From a virus (Duplodnaviria > Caudoviricetes), in the IMG/VR virus record IMGVR_UViG_3300045747_000505: a DNA stretch of 64,000 bases, one strand, 5' to 3'. The notes under the pieces were generated by a model, which did no database searches, was not told where the DNA came from, and saw nothing but the letters and a program-made list of their open reading frames with translations. This document shows, one piece after another, positions 2,826 to 37,116 of the stretch. Each line of letters starts with the position of its first letter. Position 1 is the first letter of the stretch. The translations under genes were made by a program, and so were the position numbers.

Positions 2826-3413
2826 ATGAAAACCGTCGCCTACATTCATGGTCTTGCTGGGTCTCATCGGTCCTTCAACTACATGCTACGGGACCTGCCG
2901 GCGCACAAGAAGATCTGCATCAACTATGCGAGTCATCAACCGCTCGAGAAGTCGCTAGAGCAGATCGTTCACCTTCTACCGAAGGTCGTTCCAATCTCCA
3001 TCGTCGGGCACTCGCTCGGCGGCATCATCGCCCTCCTCATCGCCTGTCAGGGCATCATCAACGTCGAGCGCGTTCTCACCATCTCCTCGCCGATCGCTGG
3101 CAGCAAGGCAGCAAGCCTACTGCGCTGGGTGCCTGGACATCCGGCCGTGATGAGCGACGTCATGCCGCACAGCTCACGCATTCGAGAGCTGTTGGGTTCA
3201 TCCCTTCAGATCCCAGTCACGAACATCATCTCTATCGGCGGACAGCTCGGTGGCAGTCTGGAGCCGAACGACAGCGTTGTCGCCATCTCAAGTCAGAAGG
3301 CGCTGCCGTATGGCACCAAGATCGAGGTCAAGGCGAATCACTTTGAGGTGCTCTCACATGAGCGCACCGTTCAGATCATTCGCGAGGCATTGTTTCAGGA
3401 GGTATTCGCATGA
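2826..3413 (+). CDS. alpha/beta hydrolase (lipase/esterase-like)
   Basis: YIHG oxyanion motif, GHSLGG nucleophile elbow, ISSP, NDSVV Asp, NHF His. Confidence 0.85.
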   Translation: MKTVAYIHGLAGSHRSFNYMLRDLPAHKKICINYASHQPLEKSLEQIVHLLPKVVPISIVGHSLGGIIALLIACQGIINVERVLTISSPIAGSKAASLLRWVPGHPAVMSDVMPHSSRIRELLGSSLQIPVTNIISIGGQLGGSLEPNDSVVAISSQKALPYGTKIEVKANHFEVLSHERTVQIIREALFQEVFA

Positions 3414-4198
3414 ACATTCTGTCGCATCGAGCACGTCTAAGGGCCGGCGAGCGAAAGGCTAGTGAGCGCGCTGCTGAAGCCATGAAGTGCAAGGACGATC
3501 CGCTGTACTTCATCGAGCACTTCATTCGTCTACCAGTTGGCGGGGTTCTGCGTCCAATCCCGCTCTATGAGCTGCAGAAGAATCTGATCAACGAGCTGGC
3601 TACGCACAATCAACTGATCACCAAGCATCCGCGCCGCGCTGGCGTCAGCACGATTGCCATGGCGTATCTGGTTTGGGAGGTGTTGTTTCGCTCAGATGAG
3701 CCGCGCATCGTGCTCGCACCAAACTCCACGATGGCTCGACAGGCGTACGAGACGTTCCGCAGTTTGCTTGGCAGCGTGCCGTTCTGGCTGTCGTCGCCAG
3801 TCGCCTCATCGGTGAACATGTCGCTGGTGCTGATGAACGGCTCAGTCGTCTACTTCGCAGCGGCGAACGCCAATCTGCACTACACGATGACGCCAGCGTC
3901 AATCTACTTCACTGACTTCGCCTACTTCGATTTGGCTGTCGCAAACATTACTTGGGTGCAGCACATCAACTCGATGAATAGAGGCTCACGCGTCTTCATG
4001 CACTCGACGCCAAACACCGCGCTGGACATGTTCGCTCAGCTCTGGTCAAAGACCATCTTTGGTGTGCCACCACTGCACGCGCACAGCATTGGCTATTGGG
4101 ACCTACCGTACGCTTCGCAAGCTAAGTGGGACGCGAACGTTCAGACCTCAGGTCTATACAACACAAAGCGCGAGCTCGGCGCTGAAATACCAGGATAA
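3410..4198 (+). CDS. terminase-ATPase-domain paralog 1, degenerate
   Basis: Colinear with the N-terminal half of 4888..6432 (KCKDDPLYF, LYELQ, STPN); Walker A PRRAGVST, Walker B IYFTDF; no nuclease domain. Confidence 0.8.
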   Translation: MNILSHRARLRAGERKASERAAEAMKCKDDPLYFIEHFIRLPVGGVLRPIPLYELQKNLINELATHNQLITKHPRRAGVSTIAMAYLVWEVLFRSDEPRIVLAPNSTMARQAYETFRSLLGSVPFWLSSPVASSVNMSLVLMNGSVVYFAAANANLHYTMTPASIYFTDFAYFDLAVANITWVQHINSMNRGSRVFMHSTPNTALDMFAQLWSKTIFGVPPLHAHSIGYWDLPYASQAKWDANVQTSGLYNTKRELGAEIPG

Positions 4199-4201
4199 GC
4201 T

Positions 4202-4891
4202 ATGGCACTGATTCTCTCAAAGCGCGCTAAGGACAAGTACGACGCAATGTCCGTTGAGGACTTGTCCTGCTTCGACCCAATCTACTTCATCGAGCATCAC
4301 CTTGAGCTGCCACATCGTCGACGGTTCGATTTGAACGATGAGCAGCTTCATCTGGTGACGCGACTTCACGATGATTTTCTGGTCGTCTGCAAGCAAGACC
4401 GAGGTGTTGGCGTCACTCTCGCCTCCATCGCCTACGCGCTGTGGTACGCTCAGTTCCACAGCAACGTCTTCTGTCTGTTCGTGCTGCCAACCTCTACGAT
4501 GGCAGCGATGGTTCGCGACCAGGCATTGGCTATGTTCGGCTCTCAGAGCGCGAACGTCGGCGCGAGCATGACCTACTACAACCGCGCCGAGGTTCGCTTC
4601 GACAATGGAAGTCGCATTCACTTCTCTCGCCTTCACGATAACGTTGGCACGGGCTACTTAACTAACCTAATCGTCCTTGGCGACGTGACGGTGTGCAACA
4701 GCGAAGAAGTAGTAGACGGACTGAAGTCGCTGCTGCCGGCAATACCAGCAGACGGGCGGCTATTGATTCACGGATATCCAACCACTCAAGATCACTTCTT
4801 CTTCGACTTGTGGCAGATGGGGAACATTCGCTCGTCGAGAATCAATGGACGGACGCTGCACCCAGTTGACTTGGGTGGGGACTTCGTGTGA
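4202..4891 (+). CDS. terminase-ATPase-domain paralog 2, degenerate
   Basis: DPIYFIEH, QDRGVGVT, LWYAQF, YYNR..FDNGSRI, IVLGDV; no nuclease domain. Confidence 0.78.
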   Translation: MALILSKRAKDKYDAMSVEDLSCFDPIYFIEHHLELPHRRRFDLNDEQLHLVTRLHDDFLVVCKQDRGVGVTLASIAYALWYAQFHSNVFCLFVLPTSTMAAMVRDQALAMFGSQSANVGASMTYYNRAEVRFDNGSRIHFSRLHDNVGTGYLTNLIVLGDVTVCNSEEVVDGLKSLLPAIPADGRLLIHGYPTTQDHFFFDLWQMGNIRSSRINGRTLHPVDLGGDFV

Positions 4892-6432
4892 AAAATCCTC
4901 AGATTAAGCGCGCTTACGCGACTGATGAATACACACCTCAAATGGTGATGGAATTACGCAAGTGCAGGACAGATCCTGTCTACTTCATGCGCAACTACGT
5001 GATGATTCAACACCCAACACGTGGAACAATCAAGTTCGATCTCTTTGACTACCAAGAACGGTTCGTTCGACACATGCACTCGAACCGGTTTGTTGTTACA
5101 CTACAACCACGTCAGTGCGGCAAGACGCTGACTGTTGCCATGTATCTTCTTTGGTACGCTTGCTTCATTGATGACGCAACAGTGTTGATTGCTTCTAAGA
5201 ACCAATCACACGCCCTTGAGATCGCTGCTCGTGTTCGCTTCGCCTACGAAGAGTTGCCGAACTGGTTGAAACCAGGTATGAAGTACTACAATCGGCACAA
5301 TCTTGAAATGGACAATGGGTCCCGTATTGTCTCTGAAGCGACGACTGAGAAGACTGGTCGTGGTCTGTCCATCTCCAAGCTGTACCTTGACGAGCTGGCG
5401 TTCATCAACCCACGCATTCAAGAAGAGCTGTGGGCGTCGCTGGCACCAACGCTCTCGACTGGTGGTTCAGCCATCATGTCATCGACACCAAACGGCGACA
5501 CTGAGTTGTTCGCTCAGATCTGGCGCCGTGCTATGTCTGGCTCAGAGGACAAGGCTGGCACCAACTTCGCACCGTTCGAGGTGCACTGGCGTGAGCACCC
5601 AGAGCGAAGCGACGAGTACTGGCAGACGATGGTCAACATGCTTGGCGAGCTCAAGACTCGGCAGGAAGTTGGCTGTGAGTTCCTCAGCTCTGAAGCTATG
5701 CTCATCAGCTCGATGGTGCTCAACAAGCTTGCCGCCAAGATGGTCGACCATCTTGACATGGGCTACAAGTTCTGGGTGCCGAAGGATTCGCTTGGCGGTG
5801 CCGGCAAGACGTACTTTCTGTCCGTTGACCCTGCTACAGGCAACGGCAACGACTTCAGCGTCGTCGAGGTCTTCGACTTTCCAGGGTTGAATCAGATTGC
5901 CGAGTGGCGCAGCAATGACATCAACGTCCCGCTGCTCTACGCCAAGATCAAGTGGATGCTGAACCTGCTCTGTGAGGCGAGGGGGCGCGGGCGCGCCGAG
6001 GTCGTCTGGACGTTCGAGCGCAACGGCATCGGTGAGGCGCTGGCCGCACTCTACTTCAACGATGAGAAGCAGCCAGAGCACGCCGAGCTGTACTGCGACG
6101 TCCCAGGCAAGCTCGGCGTCTACACCACCGGCAAGAGCAAGATTCTGTCCTGCCTTCAGATCAAGCGATTGATCGAGAAGACGAAGGGTGGCATGACGAT
6201 CAACTCTGAGATTCTGCTGTTCGAGCTGAAGAACTTCATCGCCAAGGGTGGAACCTACGAGGGCAAGAAGGGCGCGACGGATGACTGCGTCATGGCGACG
6301 GTTGGCATCACTCGCCTGCTCAAGCGCCTCGCCGACTACAACGATGCTGCGTTCAAGCAGGTCAACGAGTACGTGAACCCTGAGGACGAAGAGGGCGATT
6401 CAGGCGAAGCGATGCCGTTCATGCTGGTCTGA
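4888..6432 (+). CDS. terL: terminase large subunit (T4 gp17-like)
   Basis: Walker A QPRQCGKT, Walker B LYLDE, SSTPNG motif III, nuclease SVDPATG...DFS and DDCVMA. Confidence 0.96.
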   Translation: MKNPQIKRAYATDEYTPQMVMELRKCRTDPVYFMRNYVMIQHPTRGTIKFDLFDYQERFVRHMHSNRFVVTLQPRQCGKTLTVAMYLLWYACFIDDATVLIASKNQSHALEIAARVRFAYEELPNWLKPGMKYYNRHNLEMDNGSRIVSEATTEKTGRGLSISKLYLDELAFINPRIQEELWASLAPTLSTGGSAIMSSTPNGDTELFAQIWRRAMSGSEDKAGTNFAPFEVHWREHPERSDEYWQTMVNMLGELKTRQEVGCEFLSSEAMLISSMVLNKLAAKMVDHLDMGYKFWVPKDSLGGAGKTYFLSVDPATGNGNDFSVVEVFDFPGLNQIAEWRSNDINVPLLYAKIKWMLNLLCEARGRGRAEVVWTFERNGIGEALAALYFNDEKQPEHAELYCDVPGKLGVYTTGKSKILSCLQIKRLIEKTKGGMTINSEILLFELKNFIAKGGTYEGKKGATDDCVMATVGITRLLKRLADYNDAAFKQVNEYVNPEDEEGDSGEAMPFMLV

Positions 6433-15492: not shown

Positions 15493-15500
15493 TATAAATA
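15493..15500 (+). promoter_or_regulatory. T4-type late promoter TATAAATA upstream of gp32-like gene
   Basis: Exact T4 late consensus, intergenic. Confidence 0.75.
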
Positions 15501-29691: not shown

Positions 29692-30156
29692 ATGACCAGA
29701 CCAATCCTCACAATCAACCCCAACCGAATTGAACTCGATGAAGCCTACATGCAGATGGCCGAAGTTTGGGCGAAGCGCTCAAAGGCAAATCGACTGCAAG
29801 TCGGAGCCCTCGTGGTCGTCGGTCGACAAATCATCAGCGACGGCTACAACGGAATGCCATCCGGCTGGAAGGACGACGTTTGCGAGGTCTACGGACCGAA
29901 CGGCGACCTCATCACCAAGCCAGAGCTGCTTCACGCCGAGTCGAACGCCCTGCTCAAGCTCTGTCGCCACGGTGGCATGGGTGCGGACGGTGGCACGCTC
30001 TACTCAACCGATTCCCCATGTCCTGAGTGCGCCAAGCTGGCGAATCAGGCCGGCATTCGCCGTGCAGTCTACCGTCGGCAGTACCGACTCACAGATGGCC
30101 TTGACATGCTGAGAACCCTCGGCATCGAGGTCGTACAACTTCCACCAACACCATGA
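29692..30156 (+). CDS. dCMP deaminase
   Basis: VGA.V, GYNG, HAE.NA, PC..C zinc motif. Confidence 0.93.
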   Translation: MTRPILTINPNRIELDEAYMQMAEVWAKRSKANRLQVGALVVVGRQIISDGYNGMPSGWKDDVCEVYGPNGDLITKPELLHAESNALLKLCRHGGMGADGGTLYSTDSPCPECAKLANQAGIRRAVYRRQYRLTDGLDMLRTLGIEVVQLPPTP

Positions 30157-30365
30157 CCGTCGCCTTCATCGAAAAAGTCGAGAACCAACTCTACGAATCC
30201 GAGTGCGGTTGGAAGATGGCTCGCGAAAATGGCGACACGCCAAATGGTAACCCACTCAACGGATACTGGGTTCTGCGCAATCCTGCCGGTGAGTTCATCG
30301 ACTACGATCGGTATCGCTCCGACCTGATGAGCCGCAACGCCGTCAAATATTACTTCAACCACTGA
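30153..30365 (+). CDS. hypothetical protein
   Basis: Coupled ORF. Confidence 0.6.
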   Translation: MTVAFIEKVENQLYESECGWKMARENGDTPNGNPLNGYWVLRNPAGEFIDYDRYRSDLMSRNAVKYYFNH

Positions 30366-30376
30366 AAGAGGACACC

Positions 30377-30739
30377 ATGCCCGACATTCTGAACAAATCC
30401 ACCCTCGTCGTTCGCGAAGACTTCAACCCGACGAACGAGGCGCACGTCCGATCCCTCAAGGTCTTCCTTCAGACCGGCAACTGGGGTGACGTGCAGTTCT
30501 ACCCGCAGCTGCCCTTCATCGAAGTGCCGATGACCGTGCTGTTCACCTACACGTCGTTCTTGCTTGGCGTCGGCCGCGAGTCGGATGTCGAGAAGGCTGA
30601 ACGCCTCGCCGCCAAGAACCTGACGCCGACGCCGAAGGTGCTGCCGCGCAAGGAACGTGAGGCCGTCAAGGCCGAAGCGCTGGCCAAGGCGAACGCCCTG
30701 ATGGCCTCGATGCTGACCGCCGATGCAACTCAGAACTGA
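30377..30739 (+). CDS. hypothetical protein
   Basis: GAGG RBS, codon bias. Confidence 0.65.
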   Translation: MPDILNKSTLVVREDFNPTNEAHVRSLKVFLQTGNWGDVQFYPQLPFIEVPMTVLFTYTSFLLGVGRESDVEKAERLAAKNLTPTPKVLPRKEREAVKAEALAKANALMASMLTADATQN

Positions 30740-31268
30740 GCTCGACGACCGCACGCTCCGCTTCGACGGCGTCTCGATCGTGGATCCGAACGCCGTTTCG
30801 GCCGTGCTGCTTCGTGGCGTCCACCCGTGTCAGCTCCGCGTGACGCACTCCTCGCCCGACGTTGAGCAGTTCAACGCTCGGGTTGCTGAGCTTGAACGCC
30901 TGCTCCTCGACCACGACGAGCCCGTCAGCATCGACCTCAAGTGGGAGCTGCCACCCGAGTACCTCACCATCGACCTGACCGAGTACGTGGCCGACAAGGC
31001 TGCTGACTACGTGCTGACCCTCGCTGAGCCCGACCAGTTCAAAGCGCTGACTCGCGTCGCCGCCGAGCTGGTCGAGATCACCAAGCGTGGCATGGTCGAG
31101 TTCTTCAAGACCATCATCTACGTCATCGACACCTTTCGAGCCAACGGCACCGTGTGGGGCGTTGGCCGTGGGTCGTCGTGCGCCTCCTACATCCTCTTCA
31201 TTCTTGGGTTGCACTGTGTCGACTGCGTAAAGTATAATGTGCCAATGGAAGAATTCTTTCACGATTGA
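30723..31268 (+). CDS. DNA polymerase III alpha-like fragment 1 (palm, GRGS motif)
   Basis: ELVEI...FF..I..VI...WGVGRGSSCASYILFILG...D...Y....EEF, matching DnaE region just before the catalytic DxD. Confidence 0.88.
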   Translation: MQLRTELDDRTLRFDGVSIVDPNAVSAVLLRGVHPCQLRVTHSSPDVEQFNARVAELERLLLDHDEPVSIDLKWELPPEYLTIDLTEYVADKAADYVLTLAEPDQFKALTRVAAELVEITKRGMVEFFKTIIYVIDTFRANGTVWGVGRGSSCASYILFILGLHCVDCVKYNVPMEEFFHD

Positions 31269-31325
31269 AATCCTGACGATAAATAATAGAGCGGCATAGC
31301 CCGTTCAACCTTGGAGAACTTTCAA

Positions 31326-31556
31326 ATGGCAAGACTTGTACGCACTGCTCTTGGCGACATCGTCGACTTCGACCTTCTCGCAATCAAGCAGCAGCTTGCA
31401 TCCGCCCAACCACCGAAGGTCGTCGAAGACCGCAAGGTGGCAATCGACGAGAAGGATGGCGTTCGCACCTCCGTCGTCCCAGACATCGACTTTCTGGCTG
31501 TCGCCAATGAAGCCGCGGCAGTCAATGCCCGCGGCGCAGCGGCTCGCAAGAAGTAA
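31326..31556 (+). CDS. hypothetical protein (late)
   Basis: Late promoter at 31279; VRTALGDIVDFDLL. Confidence 0.6.
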   Translation: MARLVRTALGDIVDFDLLAIKQQLASAQPPKVVEDRKVAIDEKDGVRTSVVPDIDFLAVANEAAAVNARGAAARKK

Positions 31557-31589
31557 GTCGTCCTTCAAATACCCATAGCAAAGAGCAAT

Positions 31590-31922
31590 ATGCCACCGAA
31601 AATCACCGCCCTACGGGACGTCGTTCTGTTTCAATTCCTCGACATCACCGAGGGTTCGCGTGGTCGCTTCACTGACCGTGTGCTCGGCTCCGGCATCCTC
31701 ATCGCGCCGACGCAGTCGCGACAGAAGATTCACCGTTGGGGCAAGGTCTACGCCGTCGGTCCGAAGGCTGAGCCTGACCTCAAGGTCGGCGACTTCATTC
31801 TGATTCAGGCGATGCAGTGGATGGAGGGCGTCAAGCTCGACAAGGACACGAAGGTCTGGAAGACCGATCCGGCTCAGATCCTGCTCGTCACCGACGACAT
31901 CAACGAGACCTGGCATCAGTGA
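31590..31922 (+). CDS. GroES-like co-chaperonin
   Basis: ALRDVVL...SGILI...GKVYAVGP...LKVGD.IL. Confidence 0.85.
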   Translation: MPPKITALRDVVLFQFLDITEGSRGRFTDRVLGSGILIAPTQSRQKIHRWGKVYAVGPKAEPDLKVGDFILIQAMQWMEGVKLDKDTKVWKTDPAQILLVTDDINETWHQ

Positions 31923-31964
31923 TCGCAATCGAGCTTCTGAGCAAGCTCGCTTAAGGGCCGCATC

Positions 31965-33158
31965 TTGCTACTCCTCATCACCACCTTCATCACGGCCTTC
32001 GGCATTGAAGCCCTTGGCACGCTCGTCTCCGTCATTGGTCTGAGCCTGCTCTTCGGCGCCAACCCGATCATCATTGCGCTGGCCATCGCGCTGGACGTCA
32101 ACAAGATCATCAACGTCACGCTGCTCTACAGCCGTTGGCAGCAGCTTGGCTACATGATGCGCAGCTACGCGCTCGTCGCCACCTTCATCACGATGATCAT
32201 CACCTCAGCCGGAGCCTACTCGTTTCTGACTGGTGAGTTTCAAAAGGCGATGTTGGGATCGCAAGAGGGCTCCATTCAAGTCGCCACGCTCAAGGAGCAG
32301 CAGACGAAGTATGAGGCTCGCAAGAAGCAGATCGACGATCAGATTGCTCGCGTCCCAGACACGATGTCAGCCCGCGATCGTACTCGCGTCATCGCAAACT
32401 TCAAGGTCGAGCAGCGCGACCTTCAGCTCAAGATCGCTGAGATTGACAAGCAGCTTCCAACGATGCAGGTCAAGCAGCTCAGCATCGAGGCGAAGACCGG
32501 TCCAATCATCACCATCTCGAAGACCTTCAACATCACGCCTGAAGAGGCGATCAAGTGGGTCATTCTGACGATCATCTTCGTGTTCGACCCGCTCGCCGTG
32601 TTCGACATCGTGGCTGGCAACTTCCTCCTCGCCGAGTGGCGTCGTAAGCGAGCGCTGAAGGCTACGCCGATTGTTGACATCGCTCCACGCAGAAAGGAGC
32701 GCGATGTCTTTGGCGACGCCTACGACGAGGTTGAAGAAGCTCGTGCCGCCGTCGGCCAATCACGCTACTTCGCACCGCAAGAGCTCGTCGAGCGAATGTC
32801 CGACGAGGGTAAAGCCGAACCCCCAAAAGCTGATGTGGTGAGCGACGCTAGCTCGGTGTCGGCTCAGCCACAACCTCCAGATGAGCCTCAACAGTCAGCG
32901 GAAGTGGCTCAAGACATCTGGCATCCAGAAGCTCCGATCCTCGAAGACGTAGTCGATGAGACGGCTGAGCAGCAGCGTTGGTACCGCCAACGGCGCGGGC
33001 ACAACAAGTCACAAGCTCCAGATGACGTCGATCTCGACGAGCTGAACGCCGACGCCGACTCGATTCAACAGGCGTTGAAGGCACAGCGAGAGCGCCACAC
33101 GCTCGAGTCGCTTGGATTGGACCACAGCAAGGGTTTGCTCCGCACCATCGAACCGTGA
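31965..33158 (+). CDS. multi-TM coiled-coil membrane protein with acidic tail
   Basis: Three N-terminal TMs, coiled coil, IIFVFDPLAV TM, long acidic/Pro C-terminus. Confidence 0.7.
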   Translation: MLLLITTFITAFGIEALGTLVSVIGLSLLFGANPIIIALAIALDVNKIINVTLLYSRWQQLGYMMRSYALVATFITMIITSAGAYSFLTGEFQKAMLGSQEGSIQVATLKEQQTKYEARKKQIDDQIARVPDTMSARDRTRVIANFKVEQRDLQLKIAEIDKQLPTMQVKQLSIEAKTGPIITISKTFNITPEEAIKWVILTIIFVFDPLAVFDIVAGNFLLAEWRRKRALKATPIVDIAPRRKERDVFGDAYDEVEEARAAVGQSRYFAPQELVERMSDEGKAEPPKADVVSDASSVSAQPQPPDEPQQSAEVAQDIWHPEAPILEDVVDETAEQQRWYRQRRGHNKSQAPDDVDLDELNADADSIQQALKAQRERHTLESLGLDHSKGLLRTIEP

Positions 33159-33218
33159 CAACGGCTACACCAAGCGAACCTCTTGGTGTAGAATCTCTTC
33201 ACACTACTGCGAATCACA

Positions 33219-34139
33219 ATGGCAATCAAAAAAGTTTGGGTCGAGCGCTATCGGCCGAAGTCTGTTGCGGACATCATCATGCCGAACGAGCGTCTGCGCA
33301 AGACGTTCGACGCTTGGGTCGCTCAAGGTGAGTTCCCAAACATTCTGCTGTACGGCGGCCCCGGCACTGGCAAGACCTCGCTGAGTCTGGCGCTGCTCCG
33401 CGACATCGGCGTTCAGAAGCAGGACACGCTGCGCATCAACTGCTCGGACGAGAAGATCGACGCGCTGCGCGACAAGGTCAAGGGCTTCGCAACCACGATG
33501 CCGATCGGCAACTTCAAGGTCGTTCGCCTTGAAGAGTTCGACTACCTCAATCACGACGCTCAGGCTTTGCTGCGAGCTCTAATGGAGGACGTGAGTGACA
33601 CGTGCCGCTTCATTGCCACGTGCAATTACATCGGCAAGCTGACACCACCGCTGCGCTCGCGCTTTCAAGAGTTTCAGATTGCCGCACCGGGTCGTGAGGA
33701 CTCGCTCGTGCTGGCTGCAGAGATTCTCGAAGCCGAGGGCATTGCGTTCGAGCTCGATGACGTCGAGAAGGTCGTGGCCGCTGCGTACCCTGACCTGCGC
33801 AAGATGATTCAGCTGCTCGATGGCAACTCCATCGACGGCAGGCTCGACCTCGCCAACGCAGCAAGCGTCGCGGACTGGAAGCTCGAGTTGTTGCCAGCGC
33901 TCGAAGCCAGCGACCTCAAGGCTGCTCGCAAGATCGTGTGCGAGTCCGCCACCATCGAAGAGCTGCAGGACGTCTTTCGCTTTCTCTACGACAACCTTCA
34001 CCGCGTCAAGCGGTTGACCAAGAACCTCGACGACGCGATCGTGCTGCTCGCCGAGTATCAGTACAAGCACGCCTTCGCTGCGGACAAGGAAATCAACACC
34101 GCGGCGCTGTTCATCGAACTCAACAACCTGACCAAGTGA
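33219..34139 (+). CDS. clamp loader AAA+ subunit (T4 gp44/RFC-like)
   Basis: WVERYRP, GGPGTGKT, INCSD, LEEFDYL, TCNY, LRSR. Confidence 0.93.
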   Translation: MAIKKVWVERYRPKSVADIIMPNERLRKTFDAWVAQGEFPNILLYGGPGTGKTSLSLALLRDIGVQKQDTLRINCSDEKIDALRDKVKGFATTMPIGNFKVVRLEEFDYLNHDAQALLRALMEDVSDTCRFIATCNYIGKLTPPLRSRFQEFQIAAPGREDSLVLAAEILEAEGIAFELDDVEKVVAAAYPDLRKMIQLLDGNSIDGRLDLANAASVADWKLELLPALEASDLKAARKIVCESATIEELQDVFRFLYDNLHRVKRLTKNLDDAIVLLAEYQYKHAFAADKEINTAALFIELNNLTK

Positions 34140-34147
34140 GCCACACA

Positions 34148-34453
34148 ATGACCGACCATTCACCACACGCTGACGCCGACGAAACCACCAAGCGCGACCA
34201 CACGCGTCTCGAGCTGGCGCTGATGGAGCAAGCCCATCTGCTCTCGCATAAGGTCGAGCAGCTCACGCACCACCTCGAGCTGATGCAAGTCTCCACCATC
34301 GTTCAGAAGCTCGCGCTGCTGCAGTGCCTGCCCGAAGGCGGCGTGGTCGTCGAGGTGCCTGAGAACCAAGCTCCGCTGCTCGACGACGGCACTCGCCTCA
34401 CCCGCATTCGCGTGCTGGTTGTCGGCGACAAGCTCGACATCGAACCAGCGTGA
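34148..34453 (+). CDS. hypothetical protein
   Basis: ATG after gp44 stop; ORF-track start 33938 likely too long. Confidence 0.55.
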   Translation: MTDHSPHADADETTKRDHTRLELALMEQAHLLSHKVEQLTHHLELMQVSTIVQKLALLQCLPEGGVVVEVPENQAPLLDDGTRLTRIRVLVVGDKLDIEPA

Positions 34454-34665
34454 GAACCTTTCGCATCATTGAGCGAAATCTTGGTTCGAAGCAAGGCTTT
34501 CGCGTCGAGGAGCGGCGCTGGTTTCGCTGGCAAACGCATGTCTTCGACTACGGCGAGGGCTGGAACACCACGATCTGGTTCGACTCCTACGAGGAGGCCA
34601 AGGCTGGCATCCTAGCTATTGCCCCACCGTGTGACTTCGTAGTGGGTACAATCACTATTCTATGA
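34450..34665 (+). CDS. hypothetical protein
   Basis: Coupled ORF; FRIIER...FRVEERRWF.W. Confidence 0.55.
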   Translation: MRTFRIIERNLGSKQGFRVEERRWFRWQTHVFDYGEGWNTTIWFDSYEEAKAGILAIAPPCDFVVGTITIL

Positions 34666-35174
34666 GCGACCGTTCGGCATTCGATCTCTTCTCAGGACTT
34701 GCCAGCCTTTCACGAGGTGACAAGTCCTGGTTTCAAAACCTTTCACCTGAGGGACAGAAGGCGGCAGCGCCGTTTGTGATGGCGCGTTGGATGACTGGCA
34801 CCTCGGATGCCCAGCAAATCCTTCGCATAAATACCTTTGTCAATCCCTTCCTCTTCACCGGCACAACCGACAAGAGTGGTCTGTTCAAGCTTATGGCGGT
34901 CGCCGCCACTGGCAAGAACGCTCGCTACTCTTGGCTCAAGGGCCCAGGCCCGAAGAGCAAGAAGCTCTCGCTTGAGGTCATCAAGCAGTACTACGAGTGC
35001 TCGACGCGCGAGGCCAACACCTATCGCATCGACGCCGCAAGCCTGCTTGAGATGGCCGAAGAGTGTGGGTGGGAGAAGGACGAGATAGCAAAGCTGAAGA
35101 AAGAGGTAGATGATGGATCGGGAACAGCTGAGAAAGCAAGCGTCAAGCCGGCGAAGCCAAGTAAGCGTCGTTGA
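34662..35174 (+). CDS. clamp loader subunit A-like (T4 gp62-like)
   Basis: PFVMARWM...N...RYSWLK...VIKQYYECS.REA; near gp44. Confidence 0.65.
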   Translation: MSDRSAFDLFSGLASLSRGDKSWFQNLSPEGQKAAAPFVMARWMTGTSDAQQILRINTFVNPFLFTGTTDKSGLFKLMAVAATGKNARYSWLKGPGPKSKKLSLEVIKQYYECSTREANTYRIDAASLLEMAEECGWEKDEIAKLKKEVDDGSGTAEKASVKPAKPSKRR

Positions 35175-35862
35175 GGAGACCGTCAAGCCTGACGTCAAGT
35201 GGCCGTGCGAGTTCTGCGGTCACATCTTCTCGTTTGAGAAGTCCTTCATGAACCATCGCTGTCGCGAGCGTGATCGCATTGAAGTGCTGCGCGGTCCAAA
35301 GGGTCAGGCTGCCTACGCGCACTACAGCGACTGGATGCGCATGAAGAAGCGCAGCGTCCCGCCGATTGAATCGTTCGGCGCCTCCAAGCTCTACTCGACC
35401 TTCGTCAAGTTCGCCGAGTACGCCGACCGCACGCACATGCCGAACATCCCGCTCTTCATTCGGTTGATGGTTGAGCACGACATTTCACCGACGCTGTGGA
35501 GTCGCGATCAAACTTACTCGATGTACCTTCAGTGGTTCGACAACGCTCACCCGCCAGAGGTTCAGGTCCTTGAGTCGCTCGAGCTGCTCACCACGATTGC
35601 GCTCGACTACGAGTGCTATCGCCCAGACGTCTTCAAGGTGATGCCGCTCGGCTTGCTCGTGCAGCTCATTGAACGGCGCAAGCTCAGTCCGTGGTTTCTG
35701 CTGTCGTCGAAGGTCTTTCGCGACCACGTCGGCTCGCTGAACCAAGAGGACAAGGCGCGACTTCAGCGTGCGGTCAATGAGGGTGCGATGGTCAATCGCA
35801 TTCAACAGGACCAAAGCCGCTTCGCCTTCTTCAACAAGGTTACTCGGGAAGAGGGTCTCTAA
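35110..35862 (+). CDS. zinc-finger-containing hypothetical replication-region protein
   Basis: CEFC-x12-HRC motif. Confidence 0.7.
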   Translation: MMDREQLRKQASSRRSQVSVVEETVKPDVKWPCEFCGHIFSFEKSFMNHRCRERDRIEVLRGPKGQAAYAHYSDWMRMKKRSVPPIESFGASKLYSTFVKFAEYADRTHMPNIPLFIRLMVEHDISPTLWSRDQTYSMYLQWFDNAHPPEVQVLESLELLTTIALDYECYRPDVFKVMPLGLLVQLIERRKLSPWFLLSSKVFRDHVGSLNQEDKARLQRAVNEGAMVNRIQQDQSRFAFFNKVTREEGL

Positions 35863-36087
35863 GTGGCACGGCGTGTCTTCGCCTCGATGCCACTTGACTG
35901 CGCCAAGTTCTACAATCGTCTTATGAATAGGTTGGTGCTCAACATCTGGGCAGTTAGAATGGGTCTGTTCGATACGCTGCTGTGCGAGACGTCGGACCCA
36001 TTCGTCTTCGTGCGCTGGTGCGAAGCGCTACCAAGAATCATTGAAACCATCGAAGCCAACGGAGGCTCATCATCGACGTCGACATAG
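35863..36087 (+). CDS. hypothetical protein
   Basis: GTG immediately after previous stop; 3' end overlaps DnaE fragment 2. Confidence 0.4.
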   Translation: MARRVFASMPLDCAKFYNRLMNRLVLNIWAVRMGLFDTLLCETSDPFVFVRWCEALPRIIETIEANGGSSSTST

Positions 36088-36647
36088 ACACGCAAACCAG
36101 CTTCGACCCAGTGAAGCTCTTCCCATCGTGGGTTCGCGCCTCGGTCGTCCGCGATGGTCGCCTGACGCCACACCCATGCGGCGTCTACCCTCAGCGCATG
36201 CCACGCGACCCACTGACCAAGCTCGCCGCCATTCCGCACGAGGCAGCGGAGGACTTCGGCTTTCTCAAGGTCGACTTTCTGCACCTGAGCGCCTACAACG
36301 GGTTCAAGTCCCGTGAGGAGATCGAGCGCCTCGTCGCGCTTGAACCCAACTGGTCGCTGCTTCAGCTCACCTCAACGCACGGCAAGCTGTTTCAGCTGTC
36401 CAAGCATGGTGACATGTTGAAGGCGGTCAAGCCATCATCCGTCGAGGAGCTCGCGGACTGCATGGCGCTGATTCGACCTGGCAAGAAGGCTTTCCTCGGT
36501 CTCTACACGAAGGAGCGGGCTGCGGCTCGCGTGCTGCTGTACGCCAAGGACCCCGAGAGCGGCTACGCTTTCAAGAAGTCGCACGCGCTTGCGTACGCGC
36601 TGGTGGTCGTGCTTCAACTTCATCAGATTGAGCAGGGCAGCTTGTGA
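36072..36647 (+). CDS. DNA polymerase III alpha-like fragment 2 (catalytic DxD, KxD, FxKSHA); probable ATC start
   Basis: In-frame DVDID upstream of GTG 36111; HPCGVY, GFLKVDFL, FKKSHALAY; GGAGG at 36061-36065; in-frame stop at 36042. Confidence 0.85.
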   Translation: MDVDIDTQTSFDPVKLFPSWVRASVVRDGRLTPHPCGVYPQRMPRDPLTKLAAIPHEAAEDFGFLKVDFLHLSAYNGFKSREEIERLVALEPNWSLLQLTSTHGKLFQLSKHGDMLKAVKPSSVEELADCMALIRPGKKAFLGLYTKERAAARVLLYAKDPESGYAFKKSHALAYALVVVLQLHQIEQGSL

Positions 36648-36802
36648 ACGCGAAGCAGCTAGCGAAGGTCGCGTGGTTCGTCCATCGAACGGGCTGTGAT
36701 GCCGCCGAGGCTGAGAAGTTCCTGAAGGAGGCGAAGTTCAGAATCGACGAAGCCATCAAGCTTCGGCGCGACCACTGGCAGCGAGTGTACAGTAAATCGT
36801 AA
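36644..36802 (+). CDS. 52-aa UBA/EF-Ts-N-like three-helix miniprotein (not in ORF track)
   Basis: GTGA coupling; MNAKQLAKVAWFVHRTGCDAAEAEKFLKEAKFRIDEAIKLRR. Confidence 0.5.
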   Translation: MNAKQLAKVAWFVHRTGCDAAEAEKFLKEAKFRIDEAIKLRRDHWQRVYSKS

Positions 36803-36873
36803 CGCCGCTCAGTCGTTACACTCTGAACCCGCAGGCTGGTGTATAATGACTCAACGTCAACAAGGACACCACC

Positions 36874-37116
36874 ATGAAGTCTGCCACCAAAGTCGCCCTG
36901 TTTGCCTACCTTGAAGCCCTCAAGGCCGAAGGCTTCACGCACATTCATGCTGGTAGCGTCATCCCAATGCGCGCCGGACAAGCTGCCGTCGAAGCCAGGT
37001 GGACGCAATTCCCGCTGATCGGCGAGACCGAGCTGCCCGAAGGCATCTTCTACGATCGCCTGAGCGGCTGGTTCTTCTTCGATGAAGTCATGTACCTCAA
37101 GGTTCAAGTTCGCTAA
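36874..37116 (+). CDS. hypothetical protein
   Basis: After promoter at 36842, AAGGA RBS. Confidence 0.65.
   Translation: MKSATKVALFAYLEALKAEGFTHIHAGSVIPMRAGQAAVEARWTQFPLIGETELPEGIFYDRLSGWFFFDEVMYLKVQVR

Follow-up and report, generated by a model that had tools for sequence, protein, structure and literature searches.

Two genes of a T4-related freshwater jumbo phage of 273,537 nt (IMG/VR record IMGVR_UViG_3300045747_000505; Duplodnaviria, Caudoviricetes) encode between them the catalytic core of a DNA polymerase III alpha subunit (Pol III alpha), cut immediately ahead of its catalytic aspartates. Both lie in the window analyzed here, a stretch of 64,000 nt: fragment 1 (181 aa, 30723..31268) carries the GRGSS loop of the family, and fragment 2 (191 aa, 36072..36647) carries the catalytic aspartates. 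They are 4.8 kb apart, and the whole split-polymerase region is coded on the + strand. Judged by sequence, the pair belongs to the split minimal Pol III alpha of group 2.2 jumbo phages, an enzyme already published as a kind, of which the window holds a distant further member. The two products probably form a non-covalent heterodimer that serves the phage as a DNA-templated accessory polymerase.

A minimal split Pol III alpha encoded beside a family B polymerase was described for group 2.2 (Rak2-like) jumbo phages by Iyer, Anantharaman, Krishnan, Burroughs and Aravind (2021, Viruses 13:63, section 3.4.1; PMC7824862), who proposed that it synthesizes one strand or acts in repair. A sequence-only reading of the window, made without database searches, had noted split Pol III-like genes in some jumbo phages, and this is the paper that bears the statement out. 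Fragment 1 of phage CBB had earlier been recorded as a truncated Pol III alpha (PMC5259590), and both halves are contained in PHROGs (11127, 11778). The paper on phage RsoM2USA lists a family B polymerase, a DnaQ-like epsilon and a primase-helicase, and gives both halves as hypothetical (PMC8504454). New here are the exact break point, the ATC starts, the mapping onto the fold, the N-terminal domain of fragment 1, unsplit forms and two gene linkages. The window resembles the published group 2.2 cases in having two proteins, an NTP-binding N-half and a metal- and template-binding C-half, from genes that stand apart among T4-like replication genes; it differs in the ATC start of the catalytic half, in the 4.8-kb spacing and in grouping both halves with the clamp loader and a zinc-finger gene in a single cluster.

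Fragment 1 matches the Pfam family DNA_pol3_alpha (PF07733, positions 16-95 of 260) above the cut-off, with E 2.8e-10, and phrog_11127 ("DNA polymerase") over its whole length, with E 4e-33. Its GVGRGSS loop occupies residues 146-152 (31158-31178; G148-R-G-S151-S152) and is invariant across 61 aligned fragment 1 sequences. The protein ends in MEEFFHD followed by the stop codon, and nearly all of its 353 relatives, which are 181-199 aa long, share the EFFHD end. In an AlphaFold model (pLDDT 90), residues 70-181 superpose on residues 272-394 of E. coli Pol III alpha (Z 12.8, root-mean-square deviation (rmsd) 3.7, 111 aligned), which identifies them as the opening portion of the palm. Residues 1-69 (30723-30929) have no structural match in the structure alignments, and an Atlas search with the N-terminal 72 residues gave no usable match. 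This N-terminal domain has invariant L7, R10, L12, R13, D15 and G16 in the 61-sequence alignment.

The reading frame of fragment 2 opens after a TGA at 36042-36044 and closes at 36647. The protein matches phrog_11778 over its whole length (E 8e-49) and the Pfam family DNA_pol3_finger (PF17657) weakly (E 2.2e-4, 0.9 bit under the cut-off). Its motifs are DVDID (D2, D4, D6; 36075-36089), KVDFL at residues 66-70 (K66, D68) and FKKSHA at 167-172, with H34-x-x-G37, R135-P-G-K138 and K168-K-S-H171...Y175 besides. Both open reading frames (ORFs) thus read as the sequence-only reading had them, with GRGSS and the MEEFFHD end in one and DVDID, KVDFL and FKKSHA in the other. The 499 homologues of fragment 2 are mostly 189-191 aa long, at 100% coverage of the ATC-started protein. 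Among 123 aligned sequences, with identity down to 28%, K66, D68 and P136 are invariant, and D2, D4, D6, H34, G37, R135, K138, K168, H171 and Y175 are at least 90% conserved.

The AlphaFold model of fragment 2 (pLDDT 96) superposes over residues 1-191 on residues 400-783 of E. coli Pol III alpha (Z 10.0, rmsd 3.4, 187 aligned) and on 462-840 of the Taq protein (Z 10.7), and the top 17 Foldseek matches to it are all C-family polymerases. By this superposition the E. coli counterparts of D2, D4, K66 and D68 are D401, D403, K553 and D555, in that order. About half of E. coli 400-783 is without a counterpart in fragment 2; going by published domain limits, we take the missing half to be the thumb and part of the fingers. 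On the model, fragment 2 would be the second part of the palm plus truncated fingers, without a thumb.

Several lines of evidence place both proteins in the C family and nowhere else. Profiles built from the two alignments match only Pol III alpha among PDB structures (E 8e-7 for fragment 2), the models of both halves match C-family polymerases only, and no other fold scores above Z 4.1. The C-family catalytic core is recognizable in profile match, in the GS loop with DxD and third aspartate, and in the palm and finger fold. Catalytic positions vary little or not at all across the 61 and 123 aligned relatives of fragments 1 and 2, so the resemblance of each half to a polymerase is no chance effect. 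The sequence-only reading had put the size at about 373 aa with all three catalytic aspartates; the aspartate positions are indeed kept, and the size comes to 181 + 191 = 372 aa. It had also described the pair as lacking PHP, HhH, OB and clamp-binding domains. The Pfam search of both halves gave no PHP, HHH_6 or tRNA_anti match, and the structurally aligned ranges stop at E. coli residue 783 with nothing before 272, where the PHP domain lies. With these limits and two genes, the pair is not a full-length DnaE or PolC.

The place where fragment 2 begins needs closer attention. It had been read as starting at DVDID, which agrees with where its relatives start; in the window, no ATG, GTG or TTG precedes the motif, and an ATC at 36072 is needed. 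The first such codon in frame is a GTG at 36111, downstream of DVDID. The letters ahead of the motif read GGAGG (36061..36065, a Shine-Dalgarno sequence on the + strand, 6 nt before the ATC at 36072), CTC, ATC (36069), ATC (36072), and then GAC GTC GAC ATA GAC. Because DVDID precedes the first ATG, GTG or TTG and the relatives begin right at DxDxD, translation most likely begins at ATC 36072. Among the best 120 of the 499 relatives, DxDxD occupies residues 2-6, directly after the initiator, in 108; the start codons in these closest 120 include 99 ATG, 5 leucine codons, 4 GTG and 4 ATC. RsoM2USA reads ATG GAC ATC GAC at this place, and a relative with 83% identity in fragment 2 reads TTG GAT GTA GAC. 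Three others (L003, L012 and L013, 70-77% identical) have no standard start and show AGGAGA or GGGAGA, 6 nt, and then ATC GAC (loci: window 36061-36113; L003 1049-1066; L012 about 249-265; L013 about 31-47). These ATC-start lineages, four including the window and 70-100% identical, are interspersed with users of ATG, TTG and GTG; by lineage, ATC serves in four, and TTG or GTG in nine.

The ATC is no artifact of one assembly, as three independent assemblies, made from other samples, have the same letters throughout the fragment 2 region. The public gene call here, P0127 (36198-36647, 149 aa), starts at Met43 and is without the catalytic DxD, and two of the ATC-start relatives are likewise called short, at 177-178 aa. 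A small ORF of 74 aa (35863..36087, + strand) shares 16 nt with the start of fragment 2, and its stop codon (TAG 36085-36087) sits 13 nt inside. Its C-terminal ETIEAN is kept in the relative with 83% identity in fragment 2, and translational coupling of this ORF with the ATC start is possible. Read-through of the TGA at 36042, or a frameshift from the 74-aa ORF, was considered as a source for the N-terminus of fragment 2 and rejected, because the frame above the TGA holds more stops and no polymerase-like sequence, and because relatives have a Met-, Leu- or Val-DxD start and a separate upstream ORF.

Division into two genes is the normal state of this enzyme. About 100 isolated jumbo phages encode the halves as separate genes, with a spacing that ranges from 4 kb to over 200 kb; their hosts include Escherichia, Klebsiella, Salmonella, Pseudomonas, Erwinia, Xanthomonas, Ralstonia, Agrobacterium, Sinorhizobium, Vibrio and others. 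Fragment 2 occurs on at least 592 IMG/VR contigs; among 11 long ones, seven carry fragment 1 as a gene of its own, at 0.8, 5.5, 6.6, 11.5, 32.6, 52 and 159 kb from fragment 2. Of the isolates, RsoM2USA (37% and 49% identity), XacN1 and Xoo-sp13 stand closest. The closest public proteins to both halves are metagenomic, and megablast of positions 30000-37000 against isolated phages gave no DNA match.

Across these phages the break point is fixed. Comparison of 120 relatives of each half shows fragment 1 ending in EFFHD-stop in nearly all and fragment 2 opening with Met-DxDxD in 108, so that fragment 2 begins one residue before DxD and about five loop residues of DnaE are left out. There are no extra residues at the break, in agreement with the sequence-only reading, which had seen no intein motifs, and since the break leaves no residues for intein parts, splicing of the halves is excluded. 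One could still imagine that a DnaE gene has broken, is decaying or was misassembled, or that a split intein rejoins the halves, given that the two pieces together make up a third of the length of DnaE and that the second has no standard start codon. This is barely credible against the same two genes in complete genomes of the isolates and on hundreds of contigs, the identity of the three assemblies, the invariant catalytic residues, and junctions (EFFHD-stop and Met- or Ile-DxD) with no room for an intein. Misassembly of a contiguous gene, which had been named as the outcome that would overturn a two-gene enzyme, is excluded because the same arrangement is found in many complete genomes and because the same gene order recurs on a 24-kb contig of the 83% relative.

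Unsplit versions also exist. Two natural single-chain forms, of 353 and 375 aa, consist of the same two parts joined by a short linker (L005 231-2766 and L004 1066-2193, both on short metagenomic contigs), and they are independent support for association of the halves. The 353-aa form retains a DnaE-like linker before DxD and is encoded on a 3.9-kb contig directly after a 493-aa gene of the DUF5906 (SF3 helicase-type) family. Both came from a representative search; a search for longer homologues, which had a blind spot at 336-384 aa, found full-length DnaE only. In a tree of fragment 2 and the unsplit forms with DnaE as outgroup, the two unsplit forms fall at different places among split forms, one of them in a clade supported at SH-aLRT 95. 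Fragment 1 is not adjacent in the split relatives closest to them. On this tree the unsplit state may be either ancestral or the result of re-fusion.

A multimer model, proposed in the sequence-only reading as a check, gives the heterodimer an ipSAE of 0.89 with both alignments, compared with 0.02 for the best control. A mark of this height is reached by 58 of 80 solved complexes and by 2 of 110 mismatched pairs. Contact agreement among the runs is at least 96%, and the partner has a pLDDT of at least 91. In the model, residues 144-147 of fragment 1, which flank GRGSS, contact the DxD strand (residues 5-8) of fragment 2, and residues 5-16 of the N-terminal domain of fragment 1 contact residues 31 and 53-55 of fragment 2. 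The model thus supports binding of the halves to each other. The two-subunit reading first drawn from sequence has good support, with a conserved split, a fixed break, kept catalytic residues, no space for an intein, and a predicted heterodimer that passes its controls.

Comparison with known polymerases shows both what is kept and how much is gone. DnaE and PolC (PDB 2hnh, 3e0d, 3f2b) share with the phage form the Pol-beta-fold palm, the GS loop, the DxD, the third aspartate after a lysine, and the RPG and KSH motifs of the fingers. They are single chains of about 1160 aa, whereas the phage form has two chains of 181 and 191 aa, is without PHP, thumb, distal fingers, clamp-binding motif, HhH, OB and tau-binding tail, and has at the head of fragment 1 a further 69 aa, an N-terminal domain for which no counterpart was detected. 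In the cyanobacteria Synechocystis and Nostoc, dnaE is also split, and there the halves carry intein parts, are spliced to full-length DnaE, and are divided within the fingers. In both systems a C-family polymerase comes from two distant genes, but the phage form has no intein residues, is broken before DxD, and has chains that must stay separate. The chimallivirus split family B polymerase (bioRxiv 2026, PMC13648687) is likewise a jumbo-phage DNA polymerase made from separate polypeptides. It differs in being of family B, in belonging to the group 1 nucleus-forming phages and in being the replicase; Pol III is unmentioned in PMC13648687.

From these features we infer the assembly, activity, substrate and role of the split enzyme as follows. 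Fragment 1 would provide the helical part of the Pol-beta-fold palm, with its GRGSS loop holding the incoming nucleotide triphosphate. Fragment 2, most likely made in this phage from a weak ATC start, would provide the three carboxylates (D2, D4 and D68, with K66) and cut-down fingers (RPGK and KKSH...Y). The halves, unspliced, would join non-covalently into one active site. The product would be a distributive DNA-templated DNA polymerase without proofreading of its own and dependent on partners, its synthesis expected to be short and distributive because thumb, clamp-binding and exonuclease parts are missing. It would act on DNA templates to make DNA because the C-family finger motifs are kept and the genes lie among replication genes. 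Beside a T4-like family B replisome it would probably serve in gap filling, primer extension or repair and not in bulk replication. RsoM2USA encodes a family B polymerase, and so do 7 of the 11 long related IMG/VR contigs, including the only record that is 98% complete; a DnaQ-like exonuclease on 4 of the 11 lends weak support to a proofreading partner.

The chemistry might be of another sort. Many enzymes of the Pol-beta fold are non-templated transferases, and loss of thumb and fingers could mark a change of substrate, with the pair acting as a non-templating nucleotidyltransferase (a terminal transferase, a maker of nucleotide signals, or an enzyme that adds groups to DNA). In favor of such an enzyme, the pair has lost its thumb, the greater part of its fingers and every DNA-tethering domain, and the N-terminal domain of fragment 1, with its invariant R10, R13 and D15, is specific to the family. 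The finger motifs of DnaE position the incoming dNTP, and they include a histidine thought to exclude the ribose 2'-OH; RPGK and KSH...Y, specific to the C family, are almost invariant here. Kept at this level, they argue for a templated DNA polymerase over a DNA-modifying enzyme, as do, against the non-templating alternative, the positions of the genes among those for the clamp loader, single-stranded DNA-binding protein (SSB), UvsX, helicase and ligase. We consider a non-templating enzyme distinctly unlikely.

Some considerations weigh against a templated accessory polymerase assembled from the two halves. With the thumb and most of the fingers missing, the grip on DNA may be too small for templated synthesis without partners. 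The heterodimer score, itself a product of modeling, may reflect likeness to solved Pol III structures. Use of ATC as the start of fragment 2 is deduced from the reading frame and its relatives, and poor translation is to be expected from such a codon. In the literature we found no paper on split Pol III alpha after Iyer et al. 2021 and no biochemistry for any member. Finally, the sequence-only reading had proposed a role other than that of the replicase, which is plausible in light of the family B polymerase in RsoM2USA and on the seven long contigs, but no family B polymerase is found among the large ORFs of the 64-kb window.

The surroundings of the two genes bring in possible partners. From 30723 to 36647 the order is fragment 1, a gp31/GroES-like gene, a gene for a 397-aa protein with a hydrophobic N-terminus, the clamp loader, two further proteins, the zinc-finger gene, the 74-aa ORF and fragment 2. 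All seven long IMG/VR contigs with fragment 1 have the clamp-loader gene within 0.8-3 kb of it, and the four long contigs without fragment 1 also lack the clamp loader. In the window the latter is a T4 gp44-like AAA+ ATPase (306 aa, 33219..34139, + strand; phrog_168 E 5e-79, Pfam AAA E 2e-14, Gp44_lid E 1.4e-3). The GroES-like co-chaperonin (110 aa, 31590..31922, + strand) matches Pfam Cpn10 at E 3.3e-4, 0.1 bit under the cut-off, phrog_931 at E 1.4e-6 and phrog_3188 at E 1.2e-4. GroES-like and clamp-loader genes had been assigned between the halves from the letters alone, and the Cpn10/phrog_931 and phrog_168 matches confirm both.

The second linkage concerns the C2H2(C)-type zinc-finger protein (250 aa, 35110..35862, + strand; phrog_11058 E 1.6e-32). 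An alignment of 12 sequences shows invariant C33, C36, H49 and C51 (C-x2-C-x12-H-x-C) and a conserved helical C-terminal domain. The finger matches classical C2H2 fingers, in a PDB profile comparison at E 6.5e-7 and by Pfam zf-C2H2 in 6 of the 12 members. The gene, usually the one immediately before fragment 2, is present on all 11 long IMG/VR contigs; eight have it no more than 2.4 kb upstream of fragment 2, and three have it close to fragment 1. It also adjoins fragment 2 in PA5oct, Atu_ph07, Phosso and phages of Vibrio, Erwinia and E. coli, all of which have fragment 1 at a distance of 30-220 kb, and its phyletic range is the same as that of the split polymerase. Iyer et al. 2021 (PMC7824862) make no mention of the protein, and an Atlas search with it gave no usable match. 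Its distribution suggests a candidate accessory component.

A nucleic-acid-binding zinc-finger protein encoded next to the catalytic half also bears on the proposal of the sequence-only reading that the pair is primase-like; as such it would either start chains de novo or extend RNA primers for the family B replicase in a hand-off like that of Pol alpha. An enzyme accessory to a family B replicase would suit such a role; the finger, however, is a classical C2H2 and not a primase zinc ribbon, and we know of no C-family polymerase that primes de novo. The relatives, moreover, have a primase-helicase of the DnaG type (PMC8504454, PMC7824862). A primase-like function is accordingly quite improbable, and a DNA-templated accessory polymerase is the reading we retain.

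The two linkages may be the remnant of one ancestral cluster, intact in the window, or they may be the sign of a third component. If there is a third component, the zinc-finger protein would be an accessory subunit that binds DNA in place of the missing thumb, and fragment 1 would link the enzyme with the clamp loader. The catalytic half, made from its weak ATC, TTG or GTG starts, would then be limiting, and the rare unsplit forms may be sole replicases of small elements. We put this scheme forward as a speculation that is unlikely to hold.

The rest of the 64-kb window codes for a gp32-like SSB, UvsX, a helicase, ribonucleotide reductase, dCMP deaminase, DNA and RNA ligases, terminase and virion genes. 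The T4 late-promoter-like motif TATAAATA occurs once in the 64 kb, at 15493-15500, 27 nt upstream of the gp32-like SSB gene (15527), with a chance expectation of 0.05; in the same window no TATAAATA lies near either polymerase half, and a scan for sigma-70 promoters and terminators gave no decisive signal. Three successive ORFs (3410-4198, 4202-4891 and 4888-6432) match one same part of terminase large-subunit families, at positions of about 109-266, 120-263 and 92-333 on phrog_5989. The three may represent tandem repeats of the ATPase region in front of the full terminase.

C-family polymerases were regarded as large bacterial replicases. Hundreds of jumbo phages keep, next to a family B replicase, a two-chain core of about 370 aa like the one found here, and no smaller version of the family is known. 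This core bears on how much of Pol III catalysis needs, and on the origin of the C family, a point already printed in 2021.

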